Source: an uncultured Bacteroidales bacterium
GTDB lineage: Bacteria; Bacteroidota; Bacteroidia; Bacteroidales; VadinHA17
DNA length: 64,000 nt
Reading direction: 5' to 3'
NCBI GenBank assembly: GCA_963806555.1
Contig: CAWDYR010000017.1
Coordinates: 267,274 to 331,273, forward strand
Made by a program: the position numbers and the translations under genes. Position 1 is the first letter of the stretch; every line of letters starts with the position of its first letter. The notes beneath the pieces are model-generated. The model was not told where the DNA came from, made no database searches, and saw only the letters and a program-made list of their open reading frames with translations. Shown here piece by piece: positions 12,619 to 47,200 of the stretch.

Positions 12619-13455
12619 TCAGATCGTAATCATGGTGTTCAGATAGTTATTCGCTGAATTTTCAGCATTTACTTTGGTGGCGGGAATTGTAAAGAATATC
12701 CCTGATCCGTTTAATCCATTACATTCGATCCAGAGGGAACCCTCCATCATCTGAATCAGGTTTCTCGTTAAGATGAGATTTACCGCCGAATAAGTATCAT
12801 TAAATTTGTTAAGTGCCTGGGCAGGGTCCTGCGTTTGAAGGAACTCCTGTGACTTAAAGTAACCCTGACCTGAATCAAGGATATAAAAGGTCATCTTCTC
12901 ATCCCTGAAGTAATAACCAACCTTGATATACCCCGATGTTGTGTTGCTGAGAGCATTCTGAAACAGGTTACGGACAACCCTTGTTGCCCTGTTGCTGTCA
13001 ATCAGATACTCAGCGTTCTTAAACGATTGGTTTTCAGTTACAAGGATAAGCTCCTTGTATTTGTCCTTTCTTAGTATCTCCCTGAATTCTGAAAAGAGAT
13101 CATTGAACATCCTGTCAGGATTACAAATTCTTTGTTCGGCTATTGAATTACCCGTATCAATGATTGCCGAATCAAGAAAATTGTCAAACAGGGATATCAG
13201 TTGTTCGCAGGATTCATAGATAAGATTGCTGAACTCTTCCCTTTCAGCTTCTTCATATTCCTTTTTGTTCAGGAGAAAGGCAAATGCAACTATGGCATTC
13301 ATCTGGGTTCTCATTTCGCGTGACAATCCGGTCAGGAGTGAAGGACAATTAATCATACTATGTTTCAACGATTCCATAATCTTCACCGCTTTCAGGTCTT
13401 TTGGTCCGGACGCTTCCGGTACACCACCTTTGTTATATCCCGAAATATCAAACAT
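12619..13455 (-). CDS. soluble histidine-kinase-like protein (DHp + HATPase_c) lacking the phospho-acceptor His
   Basis: The H-box position reads LSREMRTQMNAI (consensus SHE[LIM]RTPLNAI). The N box (QNALSNT), G1 (DSGQG) and G2 (GLNGSG) are present. There is no TM or sensor domain. Confidence 0.65.
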   Translation of the reverse strand: MFDISGYNKGGVPEASGPKDLKAVKIMESLKHSMINCPSLLTGLSREMRTQMNAIVAFAFLLNKKEYEEAEREEFSNLIYESCEQLISLFDNFLDSAIIDTGNSIAEQRICNPDRMFNDLFSEFREILRKDKYKELILVTENQSFKNAEYLIDSNRATRVVRNLFQNALSNTTSGYIKVGYYFRDEKMTFYILDSGQGYFKSQEFLQTQDPAQALNKFNDTYSAVNLILTRNLIQMMEGSLWIECNGLNGSGIFFTIPATKVNAENSANNYLNTMITI

Positions 13456-13480: not shown

Positions 13481-14227
13481 CTACTTTAAATTTCTACTCA
13501 GTTTCCTGGCGTCCTTTTTGTAAATGCTTTTCGATCTTTCAATTACAGCAAGCTGTTCAGCTGCTTTTTGCATTTCTTCAGTTTTAATGTAGCACAATGC
13601 AAGATACCACCTGGCATGATCGATATAAAGGTTGTTATTGTCCTCGATGACGTTCCCAAATGATTTCTTAGCTTCGGGATAATTTTCTATTTCAAAATTT
13701 GAAATCCCTTTCAACAGAGCGGCTTGCATATCGCCAGGCTTGTTTTCCAATGCCCGTGAGAAATAGATAGCCGCGATTCTGTAATCATGTATCTCATAAT
13801 ATTCAAGCGCCAGGTTAAAATCAGGATTGCCGATCGCCACCCCCGACCGCAGGGAGGAGGTTGCTTCGTAAGCCCTGTAGTATCTTTCCATGATCTCCTC
13901 TTTACCCGGGTTTTTATTGGAAATCAGGGCGATTCCACCCAGGGTAACAAGGCATGCAATCAATGCTGCATATTTAATTTTGATAAGCCGTTGATGCTTT
14001 CGGGGTGAAACATCGGTTTCCCTTTTCTTCTCAATCGAGTTGAGCTTGTTCCTGAGGTTGATAACATCCTGTTTTTTGAGAATGGCATCGGCTTTTTGAC
14101 GGATTCCGACTTCGTTCCGAAGCTTTTGGTTTCCATCCATTTCTCTTCTGAACCATTGCTTTTCAGCTTCATCCATCTCTCCGGCATTATACCGTTCGAT
14201 GAAATATGAAAAATCGTTTGTTTTCAT
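13481..14227 (-). CDS. single-pass membrane protein with extracytoplasmic TPR repeats (anti-sigma-like topology)
   Basis: 248 aa: an ~85-aa charged N-domain, a TM (YAALIACLVTLGGIALI), then TPR-like repeats (YRIAAIYFSRALE..., YPEAKKSFGNVIE...). Confidence 0.7.
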   Translation of the reverse strand: MKTNDFSYFIERYNAGEMDEAEKQWFRREMDGNQKLRNEVGIRQKADAILKKQDVINLRNKLNSIEKKRETDVSPRKHQRLIKIKYAALIACLVTLGGIALISNKNPGKEEIMERYYRAYEATSSLRSGVAIGNPDFNLALEYYEIHDYRIAAIYFSRALENKPGDMQAALLKGISNFEIENYPEAKKSFGNVIEDNNNLYIDHARWYLALCYIKTEEMQKAAEQLAVIERSKSIYKKDARKLSRNLK

Positions 14228-14424
14228 GATCTTGCAGACTGTTTATATTTTATTAAATCCATATTAATATCAGTTATTAAGCTGATGCATACGGTTACAC
14301 AGGTATTCTGTGTGCCTGCTCTACAGATATTAATCAGTTATACTAACCTCAGTATCTCCTGACTTCTCAAGCGTATTCCAAACATCCGGAGGTAAAACCT
14401 TCCGGGTTTATCATTATGTTTCCA

Positions 14425-14483
14425 AAAAGCACTCCACTGAAGGAGTTTATTATTAAAAGCACTCCACTGAAGGAGTTATTATT
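14425..14483 (-). repeat. tandem 30/29-bp direct repeat; each unit is a small hairpin plus T-run on the minus strand (terminator/attenuator-like)
   Basis: AAAAGCACTCCACTGAAGGAGTT(T)ATTATT occurs twice back to back. Each unit has an ACTCC/GGAGT stem, and on the minus strand it is followed by GCTTTT. It lies 40-100 nt downstream of the peptide ORF stop. Confidence 0.55.
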
Positions 14484-14521
14484 AACTGCCCTCTCCCGGG
14501 CAAAAGGGTTTTATTTAGTGT

Positions 14522-14659
14522 TCAAATCTGGACTAATGGGGGAACAGGCCGCAATATAGGATCACCGGCATCACCGCCTTTAACACATATCATCTCCTCA
14601 GTTGAAAGGATAAACTCATTAAAAATCTCCTCAGTCTGTTCGGGTTTAATTTTTTTCAT
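14522..14659 (-). CDS. 45-aa precursor peptide with a double-glycine (GG) leader
   Basis: My translation is MKKIKPEQTEEIFNEFILSTEEMICVKGG|DAGDPILRPVPPLVQI*. The last 12 leader residues fit LSxxELxxIxGG. It is below the 60-aa track cutoff and sits 4 kb from a C39-peptidase ABC exporter. Confidence 0.7.
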   Translation of the reverse strand: MKKIKPEQTEEIFNEFILSTEEMICVKGGDAGDPILRPVPPLVQI

Positions 14660-14895
14660 TGGTTCAAATTTTAGTCGTTGATACTTGGTTTAGGTAATTC
14701 GCATTTCTACTGTTACATGTCGGAAAACCTGATTTTGTGACAAAGAAAAATCAACTATTTTTAGAAAAAATCACTAATTATTGAAAATCAAAGATTTACA
14801 AAAGGAGAAATTATCGATATTTGTAATCAGTTTGGCATTTCCATTTAAAGTTGTGATCTTTAGATGGGGAAATTTTACATACCGGCAGCGACCTG

Positions 14896-17800
14896 ATGAT
14901 TTTAAAGAGTCATATACTGTTGTTTATTGCACTTCTTATTTGCACCATCAGCCCTTCTGAGGCAAAGATGGCGGGATCAGTCCTTTACAACTTTTCTCCG
15001 ATTCCCGAAAATGACCCCACAGGCAAAACCGGAATTCTTCAGAAGGATAATTTTACTCCGATTCTTGAGAAGTTGAATTCCGATTTCCAGGTTTCTGTTA
15101 ACTCCGGCGATACATTAAAAGCCAGGAATATAGTAAATTCCATACTAAAGATTCTCAACGGGAATGATACCGATGATTTAATCTTTTCAAGCTCCCGGTA
15201 CTATGTTGGCGTATTTTATTTAATTGCCGGAAAAAATACAGAGGCAATGGAGTGGCTTAAACTTGCGTCGGCCGGAAGGGAACAACTTAAATGCGAGGAT
15301 GAGATTTATTCAAAATGCCTTTACAACATTGGGCTTGCATACCATAACCTCGGGGACTTCAAAAGCATGGAACAGTACACACTTCGCTCCCTGGCCATTG
15401 TCAGAAAACTGAATGGGGAAAATGCTCCTCTTTTAATAAGAAGCCTATCCAGCCTGGTCACGGCAAATTTTGGACTCAATGAATATAATAAAGCTATAGT
15501 CTATGGTAATCAAGCACTTAAACTTATAAACGGGCAAAAAGGAAATTTGACCAATGAGATAGCCGGCTTATATGCAAATTTAGGGATATGCCATGCAAGA
15601 CTGTCAGACTACTCCAAGGCGGCGCTTTACCTTGAGAAAGCAGAATCAATTTATAATCAGATGCCTTTTACCGATAATGCAGTCTATATTAATCTGTTGA
15701 ATAATCTTGGCGCCACATATTTTCAAATGGGATCCAGGGAAAAATCAGATGAGTATTTTAACAGGGGATTTGAAATGGCAAGAACATCAAATTCAATTAT
15801 GTCACTTAACTTCCTGAACAGTTTTGCAGTTGTTCTTGCAAAGGCAGGAAAAGTGACTGAAGGTGAGGAACTGATTTTAAATGCCCTGGAAAGAGCAAGA
15901 AAATCATCAGGCCCCGACTCAAAAGATTACTTTGAAGTGCTGAAGAACTATGCTGAATATCTCCGGTCATATAAAATCGACATGGGTAAATCACGGCTTC
16001 AGTATGAAAAGTGTCTGGTGTATCTCGAAACCCATGAAGAGGATATTTTCTTAAGAAACCCGATAATTTTTGGATATGCCCTCGTGCTGACCGAGACCGG
16101 CGATTCAGGTAAGGCACTCGATATTATTCAGGAATTGCTTTTTTCCCGCATACCGGGGAAAAAAGAATATACAGCAGTGGAAAATCCGGAAATTGAATTG
16201 ATTGAACCGGATCAGTGGTCTCTTGAAGTACTGAAGGCGAAATACAGGATACTCTGGGATATCTTTAATAAATCCCGGAACTGGGGGTACATGGTAGCTG
16301 CTTCAGGAACATCAGAACTGATTGTAGCTTTGCTTGAAAAGGTCAGGATCAATATAAGTGAAGAAGATAGCAGGTTGATTCTTGGAGACCGCTACAGGGA
16401 CTTTTACCTGTTTGCAATCCGGGATTTTGAACTTTGTTTCAGGCATACGGGAAATGCAGAATACAGGGAGAAGGCGTTTGAATTTTCAGAGAAAAGCAAA
16501 GTTGCAGGGCTTCTTGCTTCAACCAGGGAGCTTAAAGCCACTCAGTTTCATATACCTTCCGATGTAGCCGACCTGGAGCGGGGGCTTAAGTCAGAGATCA
16601 GCGTTTATAATGCACACATCTCAGACGAAGAAACACGGAAGGTGCCCAATGCTAATCTTCTTGCCGAATGGAAGGAAATTGTATTTGACGCAACTGCGAA
16701 ACGGGATTCCCTGATCAGGCTCTTTGAAAAACAGTACCCTGAGTACTATCTTATCAAGTATAATACAAAGGTTATAGAACCCCGTGATATTCCTTCAATA
16801 GCAGGGAGGAGCACAAACTACTTAAATTATGTTGTATCAGATTCCATTATATACATCTTTCTCACTAACAGGAAATTCAGGCAGCTTATTACTGTTCCTG
16901 TTGATACAGGATTTTTTAACAATGTGAGAGAATTCAGAAGCCTTCTTTCAATGCCATCGCCTCTTAGCGACGCAAAATCCGAATTCATCAGGTACCAGCA
17001 TTCAGGCATCCGGCTATATAAGACAATCATCGAACCCGTCAGAAAGTATCTTATCTCCAACAGGATTTTAATTTCCCCCGATGATATTCTATCATATATA
17101 CCATTTGAGACACTTCCTGTTGCACCGGTTTCAGAAGATGAAATCCTCTATAGTGAACTGCCATATCTTATGAAAGAATTCAACATTTCATATACTTATT
17201 CGGCAACTCTTCTGGCTGAACAGGCAAAGAAAGGGTTAAGGCTTTCAAACAGCCTGATAGCGTTTGCCCCGGTATATACGGAAAGCATAAACATCGACTC
17301 CCTGTTATTGACAAGGGATGTGAGGCAATCAATCATTACTGATCTTCCATTTGCACGACAGGAGGCAGAATATGTATCAGATCTGACAGGAGGAAGGCTC
17401 TACATAAATAGTGGAGCAACCGAAGCAGTTTTCAAGGAAAAAGCAGGAGATTTCGACATTATTCATATGGCAATGCACACGATCCTTAATGATCAATTTC
17501 CGATGCATTCGAAAATGTTGTTTTATCAGGCAAAAGATTCAGTTGAAGATGGATTTCTTAACACTTATGAAGTTTATGATATCCCTTTGAAAGCGAAAAT
17601 GGTGATTCTCAGCTCCTGTAATACAGGGACCGGAAATTTGTATTCGGGAGAGGGAATCCTCAGCCTGGCGAGGGGATTTTTATATTCAGGAAGCCAGTCA
17701 GTGGTTATGTCGATGTGGGAGATTGAAGACAGATCCGGAACGGAGATAGTAAAGAACTTCTACAACCACCTGAAAAGAGGTGAGCCAAAGAGCAAAGCCC

Positions 17801-17991
17801 TCAAAAGGGCCAGGCTCGATTATCTTAAGAATGCCGATATGCTCAGGTCACATCCTTATTTCTGGTCATCGCTTATTATATATGGGAATAATGACCCGCT
17901 CTATTATTCCAGACAAATCTTAATTACTGCAGGCGCAGTTGTAATCGCCGTCAGCCTGTTTCTTCTGCTGTATTTTCACAAATTCAGGTAG
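14896..17991 (+). CDS. TPR-repeat CHAT-domain (caspase-fold) protein with signal peptide and C-terminal TM anchor
   Basis: 1031 aa: N-terminal signal (ILLFIALLICTISPSEA), many TPR-like repeats, a C-terminal CHAT region with His (DIIHMAMHT) and Cys (VILSSCNTG), and a terminal TM (ITAGAVVIAVSLFLLLYF). Confidence 0.8.
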   Translation: MILKSHILLFIALLICTISPSEAKMAGSVLYNFSPIPENDPTGKTGILQKDNFTPILEKLNSDFQVSVNSGDTLKARNIVNSILKILNGNDTDDLIFSSSRYYVGVFYLIAGKNTEAMEWLKLASAGREQLKCEDEIYSKCLYNIGLAYHNLGDFKSMEQYTLRSLAIVRKLNGENAPLLIRSLSSLVTANFGLNEYNKAIVYGNQALKLINGQKGNLTNEIAGLYANLGICHARLSDYSKAALYLEKAESIYNQMPFTDNAVYINLLNNLGATYFQMGSREKSDEYFNRGFEMARTSNSIMSLNFLNSFAVVLAKAGKVTEGEELILNALERARKSSGPDSKDYFEVLKNYAEYLRSYKIDMGKSRLQYEKCLVYLETHEEDIFLRNPIIFGYALVLTETGDSGKALDIIQELLFSRIPGKKEYTAVENPEIELIEPDQWSLEVLKAKYRILWDIFNKSRNWGYMVAASGTSELIVALLEKVRINISEEDSRLILGDRYRDFYLFAIRDFELCFRHTGNAEYREKAFEFSEKSKVAGLLASTRELKATQFHIPSDVADLERGLKSEISVYNAHISDEETRKVPNANLLAEWKEIVFDATAKRDSLIRLFEKQYPEYYLIKYNTKVIEPRDIPSIAGRSTNYLNYVVSDSIIYIFLTNRKFRQLITVPVDTGFFNNVREFRSLLSMPSPLSDAKSEFIRYQHSGIRLYKTIIEPVRKYLISNRILISPDDILSYIPFETLPVAPVSEDEILYSELPYLMKEFNISYTYSATLLAEQAKKGLRLSNSLIAFAPVYTESINIDSLLLTRDVRQSIITDLPFARQEAEYVSDLTGGRLYINSGATEAVFKEKAGDFDIIHMAMHTILNDQFPMHSKMLFYQAKDSVEDGFLNTYEVYDIPLKAKMVILSSCNTGTGNLYSGEGILSLARGFLYSGSQSVVMSMWEIEDRSGTEIVKNFYNHLKRGEPKSKALKRARLDYLKNADMLRSHPYFWSSLIIYGNNDPLYYSRQILITAGAVVIAVSLFLLLYFHKFR

Positions 17992-18581
17992 TTCTTATAT
18001 TCGGGATCCCCTTTTATAAGTTCCATCAGGGCTTCTTTGCTCAGATACTTTTTCCGCCTGGCGTATGTTTCATTCTTAAGATTCATTCTTACAGCGATCT
18101 CTTCGTACGACAGACCCTCCGAAAACAGAGTCAGAATTTTTTGGGAATCAGCCTTTAACTTTTGAAACGCCCTGCTGACTATTTTTTCAAGGATCAGTTC
18201 ATCCACATCATTATCAACATCCGGAATATCGGTATCAATTTCAATGTTTTTAACACTTTTTCTTAGCTGGCAACTCCAGATGTTCCTGGCTATTCCAAAA
18301 AAATAGCCCTTCAGATCGGATGTCAGCTTAAACTCATTGTCCGAGATCTGATTATAGAAGGCTATTATCGTCTCCTGAAACACATCCGACACATCCGCTT
18401 CGGTACCGCTGTTCTTTAAGACATAGTGCCTGACGGGCTGGCGGTAATTGTCGTACAACCAGTTAAGAATCTTTTCGTCTTGCCGGCGGATGCCTTCAAT
18501 TATTGTATTATCTGAGATCTTACGGAACAATCGCTGATTTTTACCCGATAATAAGTTGACAAATATAGTATTTCCTGACAT
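17976..18581 (-). CDS. sigma-70 family RNA polymerase sigma factor (ECF-like, 201 aa)
   Basis: Region-2-like FQETIIAFYNQI...YFFGIARNIW and a region-4 HTH, LSYEEIAVRMNLKNETYARRKKYLSKEAL. Its 3' end overlaps the CHAT gene by 16 bp in a convergent arrangement. Confidence 0.75.
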   Translation of the reverse strand: MSGNTIFVNLLSGKNQRLFRKISDNTIIEGIRRQDEKILNWLYDNYRQPVRHYVLKNSGTEADVSDVFQETIIAFYNQISDNEFKLTSDLKGYFFGIARNIWSCQLRKSVKNIEIDTDIPDVDNDVDELILEKIVSRAFQKLKADSQKILTLFSEGLSYEEIAVRMNLKNETYARRKKYLSKEALMELIKGDPEYKNYLNL

Positions 18582-18691
18582 TAAAGTATTGATCTGTCAG
18601 TTCTGCAATTGATTTAAGGAAAAGCATGAGCATTATTTTTTGATGGAAAAATATAGTTACTTTACGCATTTTATAACCCAGGTTTCCCAAT

Positions 18692-20878
18692 ATGGCCTTT
18701 CCGTTTGTAAAACAATATGATGCTATGGATTGTGGTCCCGCCTGCATTAAGATGGTAGCCGGGTATTACAAACGGAGTTATTCGCTCGATTATCTCCGGA
18801 AAAAATGCTATATAACAAGGGAGGGGGTTTCATTTCTCGGCCTTTCAGAGGCTGCTGATTCATTGGGATTCAGGACGCTGGGTGTGAAGATCACATTTGA
18901 AATGCTGGCAGATAAAGTTACAATGCCATGCATCGTACACTGGGGACAGAAACATTTTGTTGTAGTTTACAGAATCAAAAATGACAAAATCCGGGTTGCC
19001 GATCCTGCAACAGGACTAATTCAATATACACGGGATCAATTCGAAAAAAAATGGATCAGCTCGGTAACCGATGGAAAACAGACAGGCCTGGTCCTGATAA
19101 TAGAACCGACTCCGGCGCTGTTTACGGCTGAAGATGAGCAGAAAAAACCCGGTGGATTCCGGTTTTTGCTGAAGTACTTTAAGCTTTACAAAAAATTTCT
19201 GGGCCAGTTGATTCTTGGCCTGGTACTGGGAAGCTGTATTCAGCTGATCATACCATTTCTGACCCAGTCAATTATTGATATAGGTCTGAATAATAATGAC
19301 ATAGGGTTTATTTACCTGATTCTCTTCGCCCAGCTTGCCCTTGTTGCAGGGAGGTTGTCGGTTGAATTTATAAGGGGATGGCTTCTTCTTTATATAGGAT
19401 CCAGGGTCAACGTTGCAATAATCTCAGGTTTTTTGCAGAAACTGATGGCCCTTCCGGTCGCATTTTATGACACAAAGCTGACAGGGGATATTCTGCAGAG
19501 AATTGAGGACAACAACAGGATTGAGGAGTTTCTCACTTCGGCAAGCCTCAGCATTCTCTTTTCATTCTTTAACCTTATAATATTCGGTATTGTACTGGCT
19601 ATTTTCAGTATCAAGATATTTGTATTGTTTCTTACGGGCACTACCCTGTACATTTTATGGGTCTCCCTGTTCATGAAATCAAGGGCCAGGCTTGATAACC
19701 AGCGCTTCAGGGAAATGTCAGCATCCAATTCGAAGCTCATTAGTATCATTAACGGGATGCAGGAGATTAAGCTAACACAGAGTGAGCTTAGCAAACGATG
19801 GGACTGGGAAAAACATCAGGCTTCTTTGTTCGGGTTGAGGGTAAAGGGACTTGGCCTGATTCAGTATCAATCGGCAGGGGCGACCCTCATCAGCGAGATA
19901 ATGAATATCCTTATTACGATAATTGCGGCAACAGCAGTTCTTAAGGGAAATATGACCCTGGGTATGATGCTTGCAGTTCAATTTATTATCGGACAGCTAA
20001 ATGTTCCGGTAAACCAGATAATCGGATTCTTCCGGATGTCTCAGGACGCTAAAATGAGCCTCGACAGGCTTGCCGAGGTTCATAATATGGAAGATGAGGA
20101 AACCGAGTCAGAAAATAAAATCAATAAACTTCCTGACAATAAAAATATCCGTGTAAACAACCTGTCATATCAATACGAAGGACCACGTTCTCCTTTTGCC
20201 TTAAAAAATGCTGACCTGTTGATAGAACAGAACAAGGTTACGGCAATAGTGGGAGTAAGCGGAAGCGGAAAGACCACACTGTTGAAAATGCTTCTTGGAT
20301 TTTATCAGCCTGTAACGGGAGAAATTCTGATAGGAGATACCCCTGTTTCAAATCTAAGTCTGAAACTCTGGCGCGAAAAGGTGGGTGCGGTAATGCAGGA
20401 TGGCTTTTTGTTTCCCGACACCATTGCAGGAAATATAGCACCCGGTTCGGAGGAAATCGATGAGAGCAGGATGAAAAAGGCTGCTGAAACTGCAAATATC
20501 AGGGGATTTATCGACTCCCTGCCACTTGGCTACAACACCAGGATCGGAGCAAACGGCCATGGATTGAGCGAGGGACAGAAGCAAAGGTTGCTCATCGCCA
20601 GGGTGATATATAAAGATCCTGATATTTTAATTTTTGATGAAGCCACAAATTCCCTCGATGCCAATACTGAAAAGGCAATCGTTGAAAACCTGGCTGATTT
20701 CTATCGGGGTAAAACTGTCATTATTGTTGCTCACCGACTGAGCACTGTCAGGAATGCCGATAAAATTGTTGTTCTGGATACGGGGCAGATAACTGAAACG
20801 GGAAATCATGAGAGTCTTATTGAAAAAAGAGGAACATATTATAATCTCGTTAAAAACCAGCTTGAACTTGGTAATTGA
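18692..20878 (+). CDS. peptidase-C39-domain ABC transporter (bacteriocin/peptide processing and export, PCAT)
   Basis: The N-terminus KQYDAMDCGPACIKMV (catalytic Cys) and WGQKHFVVVY (His), six TM segments, Walker A GVSGSGKTT, signature LSEGQKQR and Walker B ILIFDEATNSLD. Confidence 0.9.
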   Translation: MAFPFVKQYDAMDCGPACIKMVAGYYKRSYSLDYLRKKCYITREGVSFLGLSEAADSLGFRTLGVKITFEMLADKVTMPCIVHWGQKHFVVVYRIKNDKIRVADPATGLIQYTRDQFEKKWISSVTDGKQTGLVLIIEPTPALFTAEDEQKKPGGFRFLLKYFKLYKKFLGQLILGLVLGSCIQLIIPFLTQSIIDIGLNNNDIGFIYLILFAQLALVAGRLSVEFIRGWLLLYIGSRVNVAIISGFLQKLMALPVAFYDTKLTGDILQRIEDNNRIEEFLTSASLSILFSFFNLIIFGIVLAIFSIKIFVLFLTGTTLYILWVSLFMKSRARLDNQRFREMSASNSKLISIINGMQEIKLTQSELSKRWDWEKHQASLFGLRVKGLGLIQYQSAGATLISEIMNILITIIAATAVLKGNMTLGMMLAVQFIIGQLNVPVNQIIGFFRMSQDAKMSLDRLAEVHNMEDEETESENKINKLPDNKNIRVNNLSYQYEGPRSPFALKNADLLIEQNKVTAIVGVSGSGKTTLLKMLLGFYQPVTGEILIGDTPVSNLSLKLWREKVGAVMQDGFLFPDTIAGNIAPGSEEIDESRMKKAAETANIRGFIDSLPLGYNTRIGANGHGLSEGQKQRLLIARVIYKDPDILIFDEATNSLDANTEKAIVENLADFYRGKTVIIVAHRLSTVRNADKIVVLDTGQITETGNHESLIEKRGTYYNLVKNQLELGN

Positions 20879-20886
20879 TATACAGA

Positions 20887-22176
20887 ATGGATGACAAGGA
20901 ACAAAATATAATATATTCTGAACCTGTAAACGAAATAATGGGACGTCCCCCCGGAAGAGTGTTACGATGGGGAAATGCAATTATGTTACTGGTTTTTGTG
21001 CTCTTTTTATTTTTCGCCTGGATTATAAAATATCCTGATACCATTCCTGCTCCGGTAGAAATTACTACTGTCATTCCTCCGGTAACCCTGGTATCAAAAA
21101 TTACAGGAAGAATCAAAAAGCTGTATGTCAGCGACAGGGAGAATATCAGCAAGGGACAGTTGATTGCAGTTATGGAGACTGCAGCATCGGTAGATGAACT
21201 GAATATCCTGCGCCAATTCATCGATACCATCAGGAACCCTGAATCAATGAAGCTTTCAGGATTGCCTGAATTTACTGAACTTGGAGAGATCCAGGAATAC
21301 TGGGGCACTTTCCGGAAAACCCTTTCAGATTTTAACAATTACATCATAAATGATTTTTACGGCAAAAAAGTCAGTTCAATAACCGATGAAATAGACGGGA
21401 TTCTGGTCTATATTGGCCGGGTAAAGGTAAAAGAGAGTTTTTTCACTGAAAATCAGCTGATTGAAACTAAAAAGTTCAGAAGGGATTCCATGCTTTATCT
21501 GAGTGGCGTTTTTTCAGAGACTGAGCTTGAAAAATCGCGTCAGTCACTTCTGAGGATGAATATTGAACTTCAGCAGGTGCGTCTTGACCATTCTGCAAAA
21601 TCGATTGAGCTTGCAGAAAAAAAACAGCTTCTGCAGGATTATAAGATTAAAAGGATTGAAGAGGGGGAGAGATATTATTCTGTTCTGAATGAATCGTTTC
21701 TGAATCTCAAAGCACAGGTGAAGATTTGGGAGAATACTTATCTCCTCATTTCGCCTTTCAGCGGCGTTGTAACCTTCACCAGATTCTGGAGCGAAAACCA
21801 GACCGTAAACAAGGATGAACCTGTACTTAGTATCGTTCCGCTGGACGCGGGTGATTACGTCGGAAGGATATATCTCAAAATGAATCGTTCGGGGAAAGTA
21901 AAAACAGGGCAGGAAGCAAATATCAAGTTAAGCGGATTCCCGTACCTTGAATACGGCATGTTAAAAGGTGTGATCAAGTCCAAATCGCTTGTGCCCTCGG
22001 GCGATACTTACGTGATAGAGCTCAGCTTGCCTTCCGGCCTGACCACCCTGTACGGCAGGAAACTCGATTTTACCCAGAATATGCAGGGCACCGCTGAGAT
22101 TATCACTGACGACCTCAGTCTGCTCCGGAAAATAATCAATCCGTTCCGGTACCTTGTCTCCAGAAACAGAAGCTAA
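20887..22176 (+). CDS. HlyD-family secretion adaptor
   Basis: ATG lies 9 nt after the PCAT stop (the track TTG 20875 is also possible). It has an N-terminal TM (AIMLLVFVLFLFFAWII), a long coiled coil and a C-terminal beta domain. Confidence 0.8.
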   Translation: MDDKEQNIIYSEPVNEIMGRPPGRVLRWGNAIMLLVFVLFLFFAWIIKYPDTIPAPVEITTVIPPVTLVSKITGRIKKLYVSDRENISKGQLIAVMETAASVDELNILRQFIDTIRNPESMKLSGLPEFTELGEIQEYWGTFRKTLSDFNNYIINDFYGKKVSSITDEIDGILVYIGRVKVKESFFTENQLIETKKFRRDSMLYLSGVFSETELEKSRQSLLRMNIELQQVRLDHSAKSIELAEKKQLLQDYKIKRIEEGERYYSVLNESFLNLKAQVKIWENTYLLISPFSGVVTFTRFWSENQTVNKDEPVLSIVPLDAGDYVGRIYLKMNRSGKVKTGQEANIKLSGFPYLEYGMLKGVIKSKSLVPSGDTYVIELSLPSGLTTLYGRKLDFTQNMQGTAEIITDDLSLLRKIINPFRYLVSRNRS

Positions 22177-22177: not shown

Positions 22178-22351
22178 TTATTTCTTTGAATAGGGTTCGT
22201 AGTCGTCATCAACTGTTGATGAAGAAAGTGATGAACCCGGCATCCCTTTTTTTCCACTGCCGGCCTGGTTCTTTTTTATGTATTTCTGATATAACCTTAC
22301 TCCTGCAAAAGCCAGGGCGACTGCCAAAAGTATTATTTCAGTTCTTTCCAT
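22178..22351 (-). CDS. 57-aa single-TM small protein (hypothetical)
   Basis: My translation is MERTEIILLAVALAFAGVRLYQKYIKKNQAGSGKKGMPGSSLSSSTVDDDYEPYSKK*. There is no other support. Confidence 0.3.
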   Translation of the reverse strand: MERTEIILLAVALAFAGVRLYQKYIKKNQAGSGKKGMPGSSLSSSTVDDDYEPYSKK

Positions 22352-22646
22352 TTTATTATTGGTTTGTGTTACTAAAACAGTGTTTTACCACGATCCGGAT
22401 ATTCTTTAGATTCAGCGTTCAAATATACTTATAATAAAAGTTTTGTACCTGAAATCAGAATGAGATTTGTAATAAAGAAATGAGTTTTTAAGCCAGGCTT
22501 CAGGCGCTTAATGATTGATTATCATTTTAATTTAAGGTAAAACTTTGAGTTTTATTAAATAATTCAATATTTTCGTACTCTGAAAAATCCATGGCTTGCC
22601 ATGGTGTGCTGAATTTGGGAAGATATTGAACCTTAATGGATTGAAT

Positions 22647-24633
22647 ATGATTATAGAAAATCCGGATGACACTGTTCGTGAAGAACAGAACGGCGCGAAT
22701 GAAGATGCTGCCGGTACTGAGAACCCTTTAAAAGCGGAAAAAGCGGAAAAAGCCGGATCTGCAGAAGCTGAAGAAACAAAGGAACCGGATACTGAAAGTA
22801 TCAAAAAGAAGAGCGAACCTGAAAAAAATGATGTTCCTGCAGTAGCCGAGAAACACTCCTCCGTACCGGAAGAGTTTCATGATCTGGAAGATATCGAACT
22901 TCCTCCGGTTGATTACTCAGGTTATTCAAAGCATGAGCTTGTCGAAACTCTTGCCCTCATCATAGAGAACCGCCCTCCTTCAGAGATCCGTGAAGATGTG
23001 GAAAGGATCAAGACTTTTTTCTATAAGAAGATAAAGGGAGAAGCGGAAGAGAGAAAAACTAAATTTCTGGAAGGCGGAGGGAAGATTGAAGATTACAAGA
23101 TCTATGTTGATCCTCTCGATTACCGTGTAAAGGAACTTCTTGAAAAATTCAGGGAGAAAAAGAATGATTTCAATAAGGTTCAGGAAGCCGAGAAATACGA
23201 TAATCTTAAGAAGAAATACGATATAATTGATAAGATAAAAGATCTTGTCAACCGTGAAGAGTCAATAAATAAAACTTTCCATGATTTCCGTTCACTGCAG
23301 AACGAATGGCACTCAATTGGTGTAGTTCCTCAGGCATCGTTGAAAGATCTCTGGGAAAACTATCATCACAGCGTTGAAGTATTTTACGATTATATCAAGA
23401 TAAATAAGGAGCTCCGTGATCTTGATCTGAAAAAAAATCTCGAGATCAAGATTTCGTTGTGTGAAAAGGCTGAAGAGCTCCTTCTTGAACCTAATCCGGT
23501 AAATGCTTTCAGATTTCTGCAGGATTATCATAACCAGTGGCGGGAAATAGGACCGGTACCTCAGGAATCCAAAAATGAGATCTGGGAAAGATTCAGGGAA
23601 GCAACATCTCAGATCAACAAAAGACATCATGAGTACTTCGAAAAACAAAAAGATGATCAGAGAAAGAACCTTGATGCCAAAATAGCCTTGTGTGAAGAAG
23701 TTGAAGCCATCAACCTTCAGGAAATAAAGAGTTTCAGGGATTTCGACGAAAGAGCAGATAAGATTGTTGCCCTTCAGAAAATGTGGAGGACAATAGGGTT
23801 TGCACCCAAAAAACAGAACAATAAGGTCTACCAGAGGTTCAGGGAGGCCTGCGATACCTTCTTTGAGAAAAAGAGAAGTTTCTACGCTGATAATAAGGAG
23901 ACACAGCTAAACAACCTTCAGCTAAAAACCGAACTGTGCATTCAGGCTGAAGCACTTCAGGAGAGCACTGACTGGAAAACCACATCAGATGCTCTTATCA
24001 GGCTTCAGAAAGAATGGAAGGAGGTAGGTCCCGGTTCCGCGAAAACAGTCTGAGAAACTCTGGAAACGATTCCGTAAGGCCTGCGACCATTTCTTTAACA
24101 GGAAAGCAGAGTACTTCGCAAATCTTGATACCTCTTATGAGGATAATCTGAAGGCAAAGCTTGCTATCATTGACGAACTTGAGAAATTTGAACCAGGAAC
24201 TGATGTTCAGGCTGCATTTGAACGACTTAAAGATCTCCAGAGAAAATGGACTGAAATCGGTTTTGTACCTTTCAATAAAAAGGAAGAGATCACAAACAGG
24301 TACAGAAACGCCCTGAATAAGGAATTTGACAAGCTGAAAATAGGAGATGAGGATAAGAGCATCCTTAAATACAGGACAAAGCTTGACAATCTTAAAGCAA
24401 ATCCCAAAGCATCAAGAAAAGTAAGGAATGAAAGGGATAAATTTTTTACCAAGATCAAACAGCTTGAAAGTGATATTGTTCTCTGGGAAAATAATATTGG
24501 ATTCTTTGCCAAATCGACAAATGCTGACACTATGATCAGGGAGGTTCAGGAAAAGATTGAAAATGCAAAGAAAATGATTAAGACACTTGAAGAAAAAGTC
24601 AAAATGATAGACCAGTCAGGTCTCGATGATTGA
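22647..24633 (+). pseudogene. DUF349 repeat protein with an apparent frameshift near 24034
   Basis: Repeated W(K/R)xIGxVP...W.RF...F modules. The frame breaks at WKEVGP (CCC run) and continues in +1 as VPRKQSEKLWKRFRKACDHFF... to TGA 24631-24633. Confidence 0.75.
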
Positions 24634-24675: not shown

Positions 24676-26284
<1,609 letters not shown>

Positions 26285-29475: not shown

Positions 29476-29683
29476 AGATCTGATAAAATGAGATTATCCG
29501 GAAGCATCCTGATGGTCATGTTAGTTTTTTTAGCTTCAGGGTGCCGGGAGCAACATCTCAGTAGATTCCTTATACTTTAGTCGACACAAAGCAGACCAGC
29601 AGACCTCTTAACAGCCGACCTTAAAAATTGTTAATATCTCAATTTTAGATCATTTAAAATTCAATTACCTTTGGTCCGTATTG

Positions 29684-29872
29684 GTTTTACAATGAAATAA
29701 AATCGTTGTAATGAAAAGGGAATGCGGTTTGAATCCGCGACAGTACCCGCTGCTGTGATGCCCGATCGTTTTACGATGATGGTTTTGGGAAATACCTGCC
29801 ACTGTTCCGGTAATCGGAATGGGAAGGCTTCCCGGAACCGGGACAAGTCAGAAGACCTGCCAGACAAACTTG
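29684..29872 (+). promoter_or_regulatory. cobalamin (B12) riboswitch
   Basis: AAAAGGGAATGCGGTTTGAATCCGCGACAGTACCCGCTGCTGTGA, then GCCACTG...GGGAAGGC, then the B12 box AGTCAGAAGACCTGCC at 29846-29861. It lies ~90 nt upstream of a TonB-dependent receptor. Confidence 0.85.
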
Positions 29873-29961
29873 AAGTTCAAAGCTTTCGGGAAAAAAAGCG
29901 CAGAATCATTTTTGATTCCCCTGATTCTTTATATCCCGGCAGCATAAAATGAAGTGCACAA

Positions 29962-43212: not shown

Positions 43213-45018
43213 ATGACCATTATTGAGAAGATATTGGCTTTTCATTCAAAATTTGAAATCGTCAGACCCGGAGACATTGCGGACATTGAAATCGATACCA
43301 GGGTTGCCAGGGATTTCGGAGGCGCCAACGTGGTAAAAAATATGAAAGATTTTGGCTTGCAGATTGAAAATCCGGAGGCCACTTTTTTTACTTTCGATTG
43401 CAACCCTACAGGCTCGGATCAGAAATATGCCGTTAATCAACATATCTGCCGACTGTTTGCAAGGGAGCATGGCATCAGGGTTTATGATATTGATGCCGGC
43501 ATTGGCACCCATATCCTTATTGAAGAAGGTATTGTATTTCCGGGCGCAACGGCTGTTTCAACCGATTCCCACGCAAACATACTGGGCGCTGTTGGCGCCT
43601 TCGGCCAGGGTATGGGTGACATGGATATCGCTGCATCATGGAATAAAGGCAGGGTCTGGTTCAGGATACCTGAATCGGTAAGGATCAACCTTAACGGCAA
43701 GCTGCCTGATAATGTCAGCGCCAAGGATATTGTACTTAACCTTCTTAAAATATTCGGCGCGAACTCCCTCCTCGGCGTTTCGGTTGAAATGTACGGTGAA
43801 GCATCAGAAAGCCTGACTCTGGACCAGAGAATAACTGTTTCATCAATGGCAACTGAAATGGGAGCAATTATTATTCTTTTTCCGCCTTCAGGGGAAGTGA
43901 TAGATTATTGCTCTTCCAGGTCAAAAGTCAGGTTTAAACCTCAGTATGCCGACAGGGATGCACTCTACTCCAGAACTATCGATATCGATGTCACGGGTTT
44001 CGTACCGATGATATCACGTCCGGGCCAGCCTCACGATACAGTTGACGTGAGCGAATTGCACGGCATTAAGATCGACTCGGCTTTTATCGGAAGCTGCACG
44101 AACGGACGTATGGAAGACCTTTTAAAAGCAGCGCAGATCCTGAAGGGCAGAAAAGTAGCACCCGGAGTAGTCCTGAAAATTGTTCCGGCAACCGACAGAA
44201 TATGGAAAACCTGCCTTGAAAGCGGTCTTATCGGTGTATTCAAGGAGGCAGGCGCTCTCGTTTCAAATGCAGGTTGTGCAGGGTGTGCGGCGGGTCAGGT
44301 TGGACAGAATGGTCCGGGAGAAGTGACTGTAAGCACGGGTAACAGGAACTTTCCCGGGAAGCAGGGAAAGGGAAGCGTGTACCTTGCATCCCCGGAGGTT
44401 GTTGCGGCATCGGCGGTAGCAGGCTTTATCACAACACCATCCGGGATCCCTGAGAAACCGGCAGAGTTTATCTTTAAGCCGGCATCAACAGTTAAAGATG
44501 TCAAAAGACCTGAGACTCCGCGAAAGGAAGCTAAAACTGAAATTCTGGAGGGAAGAATATGGTACATAAGAAAAGATAACATCGACACTGATATGATCTT
44601 TCATAACAGGTACCTGTCGATAACTGAGCCCGGGGATATGGGACGTTATACCTTTGACAACCTGCAGGGATATGAGGATTTTGCGAAAAAAGCAGCGGTG
44701 GGAGATATTGTATTCGCCGGCAGTAACTTCGGATCGGGCAGCTCCCGCCAGCAGGCGGTCGATTGCTTTATTTCTCTGGGCATCCGCGCTATCATAGCCG
44801 GATCGTTCGGGGCTATTTATGAAAGGAACGCCATAAATGCGGCATTTCCCGTCATAAGCTGTAAAAATCTGAATCAACTTGAACCGGCTGATGGTGATAC
44901 CGTAAGGATAAACCTCATTACCGGACAGATTGAAAACCTGCGGAACGGATTATCGGTATCCGGCGATCCGTTCTCTGAAGTGCAGCTTAATATCTACCGG
45001 AACGGGGGGCTCTTATGA
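43213..45018 (+). CDS. aconitase-family hydro-lyase with large and small subunits fused (LeuC-LeuD-like, 601 aa)
   Basis: MTIIEKILAFHS..., IGSCTNGRMEDL and CAGCAAGQ Fe-S ligand regions. The C-terminal swivel domain has GSNFGSGSSRQQAV. Confidence 0.8.
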   Translation: MTIIEKILAFHSKFEIVRPGDIADIEIDTRVARDFGGANVVKNMKDFGLQIENPEATFFTFDCNPTGSDQKYAVNQHICRLFAREHGIRVYDIDAGIGTHILIEEGIVFPGATAVSTDSHANILGAVGAFGQGMGDMDIAASWNKGRVWFRIPESVRINLNGKLPDNVSAKDIVLNLLKIFGANSLLGVSVEMYGEASESLTLDQRITVSSMATEMGAIIILFPPSGEVIDYCSSRSKVRFKPQYADRDALYSRTIDIDVTGFVPMISRPGQPHDTVDVSELHGIKIDSAFIGSCTNGRMEDLLKAAQILKGRKVAPGVVLKIVPATDRIWKTCLESGLIGVFKEAGALVSNAGCAGCAAGQVGQNGPGEVTVSTGNRNFPGKQGKGSVYLASPEVVAASAVAGFITTPSGIPEKPAEFIFKPASTVKDVKRPETPRKEAKTEILEGRIWYIRKDNIDTDMIFHNRYLSITEPGDMGRYTFDNLQGYEDFAKKAAVGDIVFAGSNFGSGSSRQQAVDCFISLGIRAIIAGSFGAIYERNAINAAFPVISCKNLNQLEPADGDTVRINLITGQIENLRNGLSVSGDPFSEVQLNIYRNGGLL

Positions 45019-45034
45019 TACCCGAACGGCCATC

Positions 45035-45150
45035 CAACCTGCAACCCGCAACGTGCAACCTGCAACCTGCAACCTGCAACCCGCAACCTGTAACATGCAA
45101 CCTGCAACCTGCAACCTGCAACCCGCAACCTGTAACCCCCAACCCTCAAC
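45035..45150. repeat. about 16 tandem copies of a 7-bp unit (GCAACCY) in the intergenic spacer
   Basis: ...CAACCTGCAACCCGCAACGTGCAACCTGCAACCTGCAACCTGCAACCCGCAACCTGTAACATGCAACCTGCAACCTGCAACCTGCAACCCGCAACCTGTAACCCCCAACCCTCAAC. Confidence 0.9.
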
Positions 45151-45159
45151 TTTAAAGCC

Positions 45160-46395: not shown

Positions 46396-46945
46396 CAGAT
46401 TCCCCTTTTCAGTTGAGCAGGGTAAAACCTTAGAGATACAACCAGGGGAGAAAAGGCGGCTTGGAAATGTCTGGAACTATTCGGATATTGATAACCTCAA
46501 TACTGATCAGATGTTTGCCGGAAAACATACATACAGTGTTTTAAGCTCCGATCCGGCATCCATTGTCCCGCACCTGTTTGAGGATTTTGATCCTGCATTC
46601 AGATCAGGTGCCAGGGCCGGTGACATAATCGTTGCGGGTGATAATTTCGGATGCGGAAGTTCGAGGGAACATCCGTCGGTAGGGCTTGCCTATATCGGGA
46701 TCAGCGCAATTATTGCAAAGTCGGTAAACAGGATCTTTTACAGGTCTTCGGTAAATCAGGGACTTGCGCTTATTGTCAGCAGGGAAGCTGTAGAGGCGTA
46801 CAGGCCGGGGGATGCTGTTAGTGTTAGTTTTGAAAACGGGATTATCAGCGTAGGGCAAAAGACATTCAGGTTTGAACCGCTTCCTGAGAAGCTGAAGCAG
46901 ATCATTGACAAAAAAGGGCTTGTCAATTACATGAAATCGGTATAA
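46392..46945 (+). pseudogene. aconitase-family small subunit (LeuD/HacB-like); start region apparently frameshifted
   Basis: The track ORF starts at 46511, but homology-like sequence (GNVWNYSDIDNLNTDQMFAGKHTY) extends upstream in the same frame with no start codon. GTG 46392 overlaps the upstream stop but is in another frame. The GDNFGCGSSREHP motif is present. Confidence 0.65.
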
Positions 46946-47024
46946 CAGGTTAGTGTCAGAGGCGCTTATCAAGATTATCCTACGTACAACTCGCGATTTG
47001 GATTGGTGAAATTGAAAAAAGATG

Positions 47025-47032
47025 TATTTTTG
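47025..47032 (+). promoter_or_regulatory. Bacteroidota-type -7 promoter box (TAnnTTTG) upstream of tRNA-Arg
   Basis: TATTTTTG at 47025-47032 with TTTG at 46997-47000, ~95 nt upstream of the tRNA. Confidence 0.35.
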
Positions 47033-47126
47033 CAGCCGGCAACAAAAAGGTTCCGTAGCTCATCCCGATAGCTGTCGTAAGGCTCCCGGGACTGCGGTAC
47101 ATGCGAAGGTTCTGTTGCAAAGTATT

Positions 47127-47200
47127 GGTTCCGTAGCTCAGCTGGATAGAGCAACAGCCTTCTAAGCTGTGGGTCGGGCGTTCGAATCGCCCCGGAATCA
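47127..47200 (+). tRNA. tRNA-Arg (anticodon TCT)
   Basis: Acceptor GGTTCCG/CGGAATC, D arm GCTCAGCTGGATAGAGC, anticodon stem ACAGC/GCTGT with loop CTTCTAA, and T arm GGGCGTTCGAATCGCCC. CCA is not encoded. Confidence 0.9.

Follow-up and report, generated by a model that had tools for sequence, protein, structure and literature searches.

Peptide pheromone signaling is textbook knowledge for Gram-positive bacteria, where the double-glycine (GG) systems include ComC/ComAB/ComDE/ComX, Blp, and plantaricin A; in Bacteroidota it is, to our knowledge, almost unknown. Among diderms, PCAT exporters with cargo other than bacteriocins are found in RaxX/RaxABC of Xanthomonas, where RaxX requires a sulfotransferase, and in EbfG/PteB of Synechococcus. 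Proteolytic release of a sigma factor operates in the DegS/RseA/RseP/sigma-E pathway of Escherichia coli, in which free C-termini of peptides activate a periplasmic protease, a single-pass anti-sigma factor is cut, and an ECF sigma factor is freed. We know of no studied member of the sigma/TPR/CHAT trio found in distant Bacteroidota. HetC of Nostoc is a further diderm PCAT with non-bacteriocin cargo (PMC10986499). CHAT proteases act in craspase, where Csx29 cleaves Csx30 and CASP-sigma is freed (PMC10028731), and in DdvA, for which self-cleavage by its own CHAT domain has been proposed (PMC11506125).

Here, we analyzed a locus within the window, a stretch of 64,000 nucleotides from an uncultured Bacteroidales bacterium. 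In a large group of uncultured Bacteroidales, the genes for a GG peptide, its exporter, and the sigma/TPR/CHAT trio sit together in a single locus that may represent a so far undescribed circuit for peptide sensing. The clade carrying it is common in anoxic sediments, peat, and digesters. All six ORFs named in the initial annotation were present, and their domains and catalytic residues were confirmed; they are listed below together with a kinase gene.

12619..13455, minus strand: soluble HisKA+HATPase kinase, 26 nt downstream of the TPR gene
13481..14227, minus strand: 248-aa single-pass TPR membrane protein (TPR_16 1e-10; conservation profile)
14522..14659, minus strand: GG precursor peptide gene, 45 codons (ORF list and homologue alignment)
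14896..17991, plus strand: TPR-CHAT protein with signal peptide, ~12 TPR-like helical pairs, CHAT domain, and C-terminal TM anchor
17976..18581, minus strand: ECF-type sigma factor with sigma-2 and sigma-4 regions (Sigma70_r2, Sigma70_r4_2, Sigma70_ECF)
18692..20878, plus strand: PCAT with C39 domain, 6-TM domain, and NBD (Pfam/NCBIfam profiles and structure-sequence alignment)
20887..22176, plus strand: HlyD-family periplasmic adaptor (HlyD_3 profile and translation)

The peptide gene and its exporter

The precursor reads MKKIKPEQTEEIFNEFILSTEEMICVKGG up to the predicted GG cleavage point and DAGDPILRPVPPLVQI beyond it, giving a leader of 29 aa that ends EEMICVKGG and a core of 16 aa. As criteria for a double-glycine leader we used GG at -2/-1, hydrophobic residues at -4, -7, and -12, and an acidic residue at -8/-9; the leader LSTEEMICVKGG carries V-4, M-7, L-12, E-8, and E-9 at these positions. 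Across 43 diverse peptide sequences, GG and M-7 were invariant, and E-8 and L-12 were at least 90% conserved. We found 24 close homologues, and a profile search expanded the family to 986 protein clusters; in the search for distant relatives, the best 120 of 986 matches all belonged to the close family. Because the peptide has 986 homologous clusters, we ruled out a chance small ORF and dropped that reading. The peptide matched no curated family of Pfam or NCBIfam, even at E <= 5. The gene occupies the same site in 69 of the 73 genome loci and in ~60 metagenome loci (~140 related loci overall), so that the small ORF and its GG motif passed the test of conservation in syntenic loci that the initial annotation had set. 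As its conservation indicates, the 45-codon ORF is a real, constrained gene. It had been described as unannotated; some public records do carry it, as 'hypothetical protein'.

Cores across the clade are 12-18 aa long, have a net charge of -1 or 0, and almost never contain Cys. They keep the pattern [DE]..[DE]P..P..PP[IV]x[IL]-stop, with Ile as the C-terminal residue in 66 of 73; basic residues often, though not always, occupy core positions 8-9 and the penultimate position. The mean identity of the final 12 leader residues was 74% as compared to 78% for the PCAT, and the pairwise identity of the core was 0.44 as compared to 0.48 for CHAT, indicating that the core evolves at about the rate of the neighboring proteins. 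The peptide is inherited vertically at a fixed chromosomal site and is neither patchy nor mobile. Its charge and length, its universal presence, and the lack of immunity and maturase genes make the predicted peptide unlike a typical bacteriocin. The size, charge, near-lack of Cys, slow evolution, and vertical inheritance of the core agree with the earlier suggestion that it fits a signal better than a bacteriocin. The only radical-SAM gene close by matched QueE models alone (best 113 bits, below the 200-bit cut-off) and gave no peptide maturase match, in keeping with the earlier claim that no modification enzyme or immunity gene lies nearby. A RiPP with a radical-SAM maturase was rejected on account of these QueE-only matches. 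We also rejected a mobile bacteriocin island, since the chromosomal context is fixed and integrase and immunity genes are absent.

The exporter carries Peptidase_C39 (2.4e-37, residues 3-122), ABC_membrane (2.5e-27), and ABC_tran (1.6e-31) domains. Its C39 catalytic set is complete, with Q8, C14, H88, and D104 invariant in 70 orthologues; the catalytic residues flagged in the initial annotation align. Residues 4-721 align with residues 14-722 of PCAT1 (4ry2; 364 bits), and ComA structures align over the full length (324 bits). The scores for TIGR01193 and TIGR03796 stayed below the equivalog cut-offs, which makes the protein a family member of no named subfamily. The adaptor matched HlyD_3 with 33.9 bits (5.7e-8), above the Pfam cut-off of 22.2, and TIGR01843 with 63.9 bits (1.3e-17), below the cut-off of 208. 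It had been placed 9 nt downstream of the exporter; it does follow the PCAT directly, and its ATG at 20887 leaves a gap of 8 nt from the PCAT stop. The locus contains no outer-membrane channel gene. We infer that the C39 domain cleaves the precursor after GG and that the neighboring PCAT exports the core.

The sigma/TPR/CHAT trio and the kinase

The TPR-CHAT protein matched the CHAT (3.2e-53) and TPR_12 (7e-28) profiles, and the His/Cys dyad proposed by the initial annotation corresponds to H861 and C908, which are invariant in 89 sequences. The AF2 model (pLDDT 84) places a signal-like helix at the N-terminus and another helix, at 1006-1030, at the C-terminus, and the cytoplasmic tail after this anchor comprises ~four residues. 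The top Foldseek matches of the model were separase (3e-14), DdvA (1e-13), and Csx29 (3e-11), within an overall range to 1e-10. The protein combines a caspase fold, a His/Cys dyad, and a preceding TPR-like solenoid, the features of the separase/craspase/DdvA type. An exact look-up of the window's TPR-CHAT protein gave no match on record.

The sigma factor scored 62 bits against TIGR02937 (cut-off 42.9) and contains sigma-2 and sigma-4 regions only, as in ECF (group 4) sigma factors. By coordinates, its gene is convergent with the CHAT gene and overlaps it by 16 bp; it stands alone in the window, ~3.7 kb from the TPR gene, an arrangement that departs from the co-transcription of an anti-sigma gene with its sigma gene. 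The 248-aa TPR protein is predicted to consist of a conserved cytoplasmic N-domain (~1-85), a TM segment, and a periplasmic TPR domain; a basic stretch precedes the hydrophobic segment at ~85-103, and the TPR matches fall at 137-227. Its single-sequence AlphaFold model (pLDDT 42.6) was unusable. A profile search of PDB and Pfam with the N-domain gave no anti-sigma match, and the conservation profile of the protein contains no His/Cys zinc motif.

Further evidence on this protein came from five plasmid loci of Cytophagales that also carry the trio. The window sigma factor is homologous to the sigma factors of these trios (E 4e-22 to 4e-19). The Cytophagales TPR homologues (profile E 4e-26, 5e-26, and 2e-11) lie immediately downstream of the sigma gene, and in four of the five loci the two genes are adjacent, with anything from a 4-nt overlap to a 17-nt gap between them. 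Because these homologues directly follow a homologous sigma gene, the anti-sigma reading gains support. On the basis of context and topology, the 248-aa TPR protein is likely to be the anti-sigma factor of this sigma factor. The initial annotation had proposed the same role, which is strengthened by the Cytophagales gene order, although the N-domain shows no detectable similarity to known anti-sigma domains.

In the window, the TPR gene probably shares an operon with the kinase gene that follows it. Peptide, TPR, and kinase genes lie in this order on one strand, the order is preserved in most loci of the Bacteroidales clade, the TPR-kinase gap is only 26 nt, and the kinase comprises HisKA and HATPase domains with no TM or sensor domain of its own. 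These features would suit a peptide that signals via the kinase and not the sigma factor, with the TPR protein and the soluble kinase as the two halves of a split sensor kinase, an arrangement akin to ComC/ComD-type pheromone sensing, the response regulator being encoded elsewhere. We consider such signaling improbable. The H-box carries Arg instead of the phospho-acceptor His in the window and in 18 of 66 orthologues, three loci (L016, L039, and L058) lack the gene, and the conserved block contains no response regulator. Moreover, the Cytophagales TPR homologues pair with a sigma gene and have no kinase beside them.

Two modules and a possible circuit

We examined 5-20 kb of flanking sequence around the five Cytophagales trios and found no PCAT, HlyD, or peptide gene. 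The trio (sigma factor, 248-aa TPR protein, and TPR-CHAT; module A) is a unit found across Bacteroidota, while the unmodified GG peptide with PCAT and HlyD (module B) is confined, here, to one large, vertically evolving Bacteroidales clade. The locus is composed of two modules of different age, the peptide and PCAT/HlyD being the addition, and the sigma-TPR order seen in Cytophagales is the ancestral-type arrangement. When outgroup CHAT proteins served as seeds for a metagenome scan, the matches again fell in this syntenic clade, and no intermediate lineage emerged that would show how the modules joined.

This distribution is what would be expected if the two modules were independent and neighbors through descent only, an explanation that we regard as only slightly less probable than the coupling favored below. 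The exported peptide could then serve narrow-spectrum antagonism, act as a matrix or surface factor, or be an interspecies cue, and the trio could respond to some unrelated signal of the envelope or phage type, in line with the proposal for DdvA. Separate losses within the clade point the same way: L058 has lost the peptide and L115 the PCAT and HlyD (keeping the peptide), and both keep the trio; two further loci (L087 and L088) are without HlyD. The initial annotation had named independent segregation of the two gene sets as evidence against its proposal, and the Cytophagales trios and these losses bear this out in part. In addition, the housekeeping genes on either side (QueE, PorE-like, and DUF349) keep their synteny in all loci just as well as the six genes do, so gene order alone is no proof of coupling and may reflect only vertical descent.

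Against independence stands the position of the peptide gene. In every one of the ~140 loci it is embedded between the TPR and CHAT genes, ~4 kb from the PCAT and not beside the exporter. The TPR gene follows it in the same direction, separated from it by no more than a short hairpin. An acidic, very short, and slow-evolving core that has no immunity gene is also at odds with independent modules. The locus also contains conserved noncoding elements.

14487..14502, minus strand: stem-loop ~20 nt past the peptide stop, a putative attenuator or terminator separating the TPR gene from the peptide gene
14693..14700, minus strand: GAATTACC(C), a conserved element within the 5' UTR presumed for the peptide mRNA
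14713..14742, minus strand: two-part promoter-like motif ~55-85 nt upstream of the peptide ATG (42-locus alignment)
18645..18665, no strand assigned: conserved block with consensus AAAATATAAATATCTTTACTT in the divergent sigma/PCAT intergenic region

The promoter-like motif, TGTCACAAA-N11/12-GACATGTA, is near-invariant, with GTCAC-N15-GACATG at fixed spacing, which fits a -35/-10 geometry with a 16-nt spacer (TGTCAC-N16-CATGTA). It occurs as a single copy per locus in 69 of 73 genome and 58 of 62 metagenome loci, the deepest lineages included, and is invariant even where CHAT identity is only ~35%. L058 has lost the peptide gene, and there the motif stands immediately ahead of the TPR gene, which again argues against independent modules. 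The only transcription protein encoded within the conserved block is the sigma factor. We found no copy in front of the sigma, PCAT, or CHAT genes and no counterpart in the Cytophagales loci, so that we only infer the assignment of the motif to this sigma factor. Neither the window nor any locus contained a further copy, so the regulon could not be extended. In relatives, the stem-loop takes the form CCUGUUUU-N4-AAAACAGG with compensatory variants, and folding locus by locus gave a median z of -1.9, with z < -2 in 31 of 72 loci; RNAalifold found no consensus structure past the peptide stop because the alignment was out of register. The block at 18645..18665 shows > 90% identity over ~20 columns of a 70-locus alignment and resembles, in sequence, the Bacteroidetes -7 promoter box.

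Together, these observations make a coupling of the peptide/exporter module to the trio plausible. As the best explanation, tentatively held, we favor that the two modules have joined as a peptide-sensing circuit of CHAT protease, anti-sigma factor, and sigma factor. In such a circuit, the C39 domain would cut the precursor after GG, and the exported 12-18-aa core, acidic and Pro-rich with a hydrophobic last residue, would serve the cell as an extracytoplasmic cue of its own making. The mature peptide would be bound, possibly via its free conserved C-terminus, by one of the two periplasmic TPR domains, and binding would alter how CHAT cleaves the TPR protein in its periplasmic or juxtamembrane part. 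A site-1-like cut by CHAT would lead to the release of the sigma factor, which would drive the invariant promoter and raise both the peptide (positive feedback) and the anti-sigma factor (negative feedback). The binding of the peptide to either TPR domain and the link between CHAT and the TPR protein are proposals. That the entire chain holds, from a PCAT-exported GG peptide read by periplasmic TPRs, through a triggered CHAT cut of the anti-sigma factor, to an ECF sigma factor freed to drive the peptide promoter, we consider rather doubtful. If the peptide, of ~1.7 kDa, is released outside the cell, it could meet the TPR domains only by returning to the periplasm, which counts against the circuit.

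The same anatomy would also accommodate a peptide of opposite sign, acting as a competitive substrate or inhibitor of CHAT or as a ligand that stabilizes the anti-sigma factor, and with export holding the sigma factor inactive until dilution or degradation removes the peptide. A shared operon of peptide and anti-sigma factor would suit a joint 'off' role. Separase is restrained by bound substrates or pseudosubstrates, securin being the basis for this view. Restraint of this kind is also found in craspase (PMC10028731). We assign such a negative role a low probability, as the core lacks a conserved residue class typical of caspase-fold cleavage sites.

If the favored coupling of peptide export to the trio is real, the locus offers a concrete, testable case of peptide signaling in a diderm, with a 16-mer that can be synthesized. 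It would be a pheromone circuit of Bacteroidota that uses regulated proteolysis in place of a two-component receptor, and it would assign a ligand class to a widespread, uncharacterized sigma/TPR/CHAT trio. It would also suggest a possible signal for periplasmic CHAT sensors, whose cue was left as a question by the work on DdvA. The peptide itself represents a family of ~1000 clusters without a curated model.

Comparison with known systems

Several known systems share parts of this design. Gram-positive GG pheromones have in common with the window an unmodified short GG-leader peptide, a dedicated PCAT with an accessory protein, a kinase gene downstream of the peptide, and an alternative sigma factor as a possible output. 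In contrast to these systems, the host is a diderm, the kinase has no membrane sensor or, in the window, acceptor His, and the candidate receptor is a TPR protein with a CHAT protease and an anti-sigma-like protein; the locus has neither the membrane kinase receptor nor the response regulator of ComCDE/Blp. In the RaxX, HetC, and EbfG systems, a PCAT with or without a HlyD-type adaptor likewise exports a GG-leader peptide for signaling or development and not for killing, but none of them is known to be linked to a sigma/anti-sigma/CHAT module, and their peptide families are unrelated to that of the window. The conserved hydrophobic C-terminus of the peptide recalls the DegS pathway; DegS, however, is a serine protease of the PDZ type, responds to misfolded porins and not to a dedicated exported peptide, and is unrelated to CHAT/TPR.

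The initial annotation knew of no characterized circuit in which an exported peptide is coupled through CHAT proteolysis to a sigma factor; the step from CHAT proteolysis to a sigma factor is, as a principle, already known from Csx29/Csx30/CASP-sigma (PMC10028731) and DdvA/DdvS (PMC11506125). In type III-E craspase, a TPR-CHAT protease cleaves the inhibitor of an ECF-type sigma factor and transcription is turned on (PMC10028731). Unlike the window proteins, craspase is cytoplasmic, RNA-activated, and Cas7-11-bound, with no membrane topology and no exported peptide; Csx29 gave strong Foldseek matches to the window model, yet the NCBIfam Csx29 model scored only 15.8 bits, indicating no relationship at the sequence level.

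DdvA/DdvS shares with the window an ECF sigma factor, a single-pass anti-sigma topology, and a periplasmic TPR-CHAT with a His/Cys dyad that is a proposed site-1 protease, and DdvA structures (8rw5 and 8rot) were among the top matches of the predicted CHAT model (E ~1e-13). DdvA, however, is one polypeptide with an anti-sigma domain, a TM helix, and a periplasmic TPR-CHAT, whereas in the window these functions lie on two proteins: the TPR-CHAT is separate, with its own signal peptide and C-terminal anchor, and the TPR portion of the anti-sigma-like protein is confined to a small domain, this protein also lacking a His/Cys zinc motif and any detectable resemblance to known anti-sigma domains. 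In addition, the window locus has a GG-peptide export module instead of an attached defense island. The main text of the ECF classification paper contains no CHAT entry. Module A is a split relative of the DdvA/DdvS design, and the trio extends the logic of craspase and DdvA, from CHAT through an anti-sigma factor to an ECF sigma factor, to a split, membrane-anchored form. We know of no earlier description of this split periplasmic form or of its peptide-export partner.

The six genes and the peptide family

All six ORFs described in the initial annotation were present in the window with an exact match, and HMM scans verified the expected domain for each protein:

PCAT (C39 ABC exporter): Peptidase_C39 (2e-37), ABC_membrane, and ABC_tran
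HlyD adaptor: HlyD_3, with a score exceeding the Pfam cut-off
1031-aa protein: CHAT (3e-53) and several TPR families
Sigma factor: Sigma70_r2 and r4_2; TIGR02937 at 62 bits (cut-off 42.9)
248-aa single-pass protein, 13481-14227 (-): TPR_16 (1e-10)

The window PCAT aligned end to end with the solved transporters PCAT1 and ComA, and its C39 catalytic residues Q8, C14, H88, and D104 were invariant in 70 orthologues. Likewise, the His/Cys dyad of the CHAT domain, H861/C908, was invariant in 89 homologues. An alignment-based AlphaFold model of the CHAT protein (pLDDT 84, pTM 0.79) comprised, from the N to the C terminus, a signal-like helix, a disordered linker, a long TPR solenoid, a caspase-fold domain, and a C-terminal helix (residues 1006-1030); its top structural matches were separase, the anti-sigma DdvA, and craspase Csx29. 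A single-sequence structure model of the 248-aa TPR protein failed. The N-domain, which is the most conserved portion of this protein, gave no match to known anti-sigma domains in a profile search. Within its periplasmic juxtamembrane segment (residues ~104-135), RYYxxYE and SxRS were nearly invariant and the rest of the linker was variable. By analogy with the DdvA linker, this segment is a candidate protease site.

The 45-codon ORF proved to be a real gene, having 24 close homologues and the same place in related loci. A profile built from 43 diverse family members recovered 986 protein clusters, and among the matches listed all were unnamed or "hypothetical"; no curated Pfam or NCBIfam model matched the peptide, even at E = 5. 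The ORF founds an uncurated family. Across 73 species-level loci, the leader was 29 aa long almost without exception, and its last 12 residues (consensus LSxEEMIxV[KR]GG) showed a mean identity of 74%. The predicted mature peptide of the window is the 16-mer DAGDPILRPVPPLVQI, of about 1.66 kDa. In the 73 loci, cores of 12-18 aa followed the pattern [DE]..[DE]P[IV]..P..PP[IV]x[IL]-stop; the net side-chain charge was -1 or 0 in 59 of them, Ile was the C-terminal residue in 66, and Cys occurred in two. The core is not hypervariable, because its mean identity (0.44) is close to those of the CHAT (0.48) and TPR (0.55) proteins. Two related loci carried several peptide genes: five identical tandem copies with a period of 196 bp (L042:8824-9745) and two diverged copies whose cores differ, …DPVVKPNIPPVIL versus …DPVVKIVIPPVIL (L066:9444-9769). 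As the initial annotation had stated, no modification enzyme lies near. The sole close radical-SAM gene matched QueE models only (top score 113 bits, short of the cut-off of 200 bits) and no maturase model, and was rejected as a peptide maturase.

Conservation of the locus and its regulatory elements

A scan seeded with the CHAT protein, using one genome per species, yielded 248 relatives, the best 80 of which all belonged to uncultured Bacteroidales sampled from fens, peat, lake sediment, and digesters. All sufficiently long loci shared the order QueE, PorE-like OmpA protein, kinase, TPR protein, peptide, CHAT, sigma, PCAT, HlyD, 57-aa membrane ORF, and DUF349, and the sigma/TPR/CHAT trio was complete wherever a CHAT-seeded locus extended far enough to show it. 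A search of 1.84 billion representative proteins provided outgroup CHAT proteins (34-37% identity), and a metagenome scan from these seeds found the arrangement again identical, the deepest lineages included. This marks the locus as ancient and inherited vertically at a fixed chromosomal site. Individual relatives had lost the peptide and kinase (L058) or PCAT and HlyD with the peptide intact (L115), and others were without HlyD (L087 and L088) or the kinase (L016 and L039). Gene order alone leaves a joint function of the six genes unproven, because unrelated flanking genes are equally conserved. The main rival reading, possible though somewhat doubtful, is that the trio and the peptide-export genes are neighbours by descent with separate functions.

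Other features of the window were as follows:

12619-13455 (-): soluble histidine kinase gene, 3' of the TPR gene
22178-22351 (-): 57-aa ORF with one TM helix (MERTEIILLAVALAFAGVRLYQKY…), on the opposite strand directly 3' of HlyD, kept in most related loci and assigned to no known family
22584-24630: DUF349 gene in two overlapping frames; relatives have an intact 662-aa DUF349
24816-25591: pyrG (CTP synthase), fragments only; a 177-aa ORF matches residues 49-217 of the 534-residue model
29664-29878 (+): cobalamin riboswitch (92 bits)
44000-48000: G+C of 0.47-0.50, versus ~0.41 elsewhere in the window
47127-47200 (+): one tRNA gene

The split DUF349 and pyrG genes are either assembly-error frameshifts or pseudogenes.

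Noncoding elements around the peptide and sigma genes included the following:

~55-85 nt before the peptide ATG: two-part element TTTTTT..TGTCACAAA-N11/12-GACATGTA
14431-14476: hairpin ACTCCTTCAGTGGAGT, present twice in the interval that separates the peptide gene from the TPR gene, each copy inside a ~30-bp direct repeat and neither conserved among relatives
14693-14700 (-): GAATTACC(C) element, presumably within the 5' UTR of the peptide transcript and kept into the deepest lineages
18645-18665: block of ~21 bp (consensus AAAATATAAATATCTTTACTT) between the divergent sigma and PCAT genes, conserved at >90% across 70 loci

Both boxes of the two-part element were almost invariant, with a free spacer. 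In the form GTCAC-N15-GACATG, it occurred once per locus at a constant position, in 69/73 genome and 58/62 metagenome loci, and it was kept even where the CHAT proteins were only ~35% identical to that of the window. Read as GTCACA-N16-CATGTA, it would match sigma-70-family promoters in geometry. L058, which has lost the peptide gene, keeps the element immediately before the TPR gene. Its recognition by this sigma factor is unproven, because no second copy was found in the window or the related loci; the Cytophagales loci described below held none. Per-sequence folding gave a stem-loop 3' of the peptide stop codon in most loci, with compensatory changes, which would suit an attenuator separating an abundant precursor mRNA from the TPR and kinase genes further downstream. 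The block between sigma and PCAT differs from the peptide-promoter element and resembles the housekeeping Bacteroidetes -7 box; it may serve as such a promoter box for PCAT or sigma.

The sigma/TPR/CHAT trio in Cytophagales

Using tblastn of annotated plasmids, we found TPR-CHAT homologues in Cytophagales, on four Chondrinema litorale plasmids (L167, L168, L169, and L172) and on Emticicia pEMTOL03 (L171). These CHAT proteins also carry a signal peptide and a C-terminal anchor. A sigma-70-family gene adjoins the CHAT gene, or lies a few kb away, in all five loci, and in four the gene directly after it (4-nt overlap to 17-nt gap) encodes a protein of 233-253 aa; L168 showed no homologue of the TPR protein in the vicinity of its CHAT and sigma genes. 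With profiles from the window orthologues, three of the TPR homologues gave full-length matches (E 4e-26, 5e-26, and 2e-11) and the sigma factors matched at E 4e-22 to 4e-19, while the L172 TPR homologue was detected by tblastn (E 1e-4, 90% of the query covered). This operon partner, together with the membrane topology, supports the TPR protein as an anti-sigma.

Flanks of 20 kb at one Chondrinema locus and of 5-8 kb at the remaining four contained no PCAT or HlyD gene, and a scan of four Cytophagales loci turned up no homologue of the peptide. The peptide-export genes were found in the Bacteroidales clade only. The linkage of the trio with the peptide-export genes implied by the initial annotation holds as gene order across that clade but not in the Cytophagales, nor in the loci lacking the exporter (L115) or the peptide (L058). 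By these comparisons, the trio is an independent module. One C. litorale strain has four or more sigma/TPR/CHAT sets spread over different plasmids (the L168 set being the one in which the TPR homologue was not found), and in some sets genes for additional secreted hypothetical proteins separate sigma from CHAT. Several sets on separate plasmids, some with extra genes, suggest that the trio is a modular, sometimes mobile sensor family.

Proposed circuit and known systems

The best-supported reading is a composite locus, in which a Bacteroidota-type sigma/anti-sigma/periplasmic CHAT module has acquired a dedicated exported peptide, encoded upstream of the putative anti-sigma (TPR) gene on a shared strand. 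By analogy with known systems, the peptide would be exported and bound by a periplasmic TPR domain, the CHAT protease would cut the anti-sigma in a site-1-like manner, and the released sigma factor would feed back on the invariant promoter. We put this four-step mechanism forward tentatively: the parts described in the initial annotation and the peptide family are real, while the coupling of the peptide to CHAT and sigma is one that we infer. As a minor alternative, the peptide could be a negative element acting on the CHAT protease. Another minor one has the peptide read through the downstream kinase, whose ATP-binding motifs look intact and which carries SHEMRT in 48 of 66 orthologues; this reading is weakened because the window and the other 18 have Arg (SREMRT) at the position of the phospho-acceptor His, and the gene is absent from L016, L039, and L058.

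Each part of the composite locus is already known as a type, and control of ECF sigma factors by CHAT proteases has precedents. ECF54 is an actinobacterial group. CHAT-domain genes occur in its genetic context (review). In the literature searched, we found no description of a split periplasmic trio in Bacteroidota or of the peptide family, nor any account of a sigma/anti-sigma/CHAT module combined with a peptide exported by a PCAT. The proposed mechanism follows the demonstrated logic of craspase, in which a protease, Csx29, cleaves its partner Csx30 and thereby releases CASP-sigma (PMC10028731). It is likewise in line with the proposed model of DdvA, an anti-sigma with a periplasmic TPR-CHAT region (PMC11506125), and bears a looser likeness to DegS/RseA.
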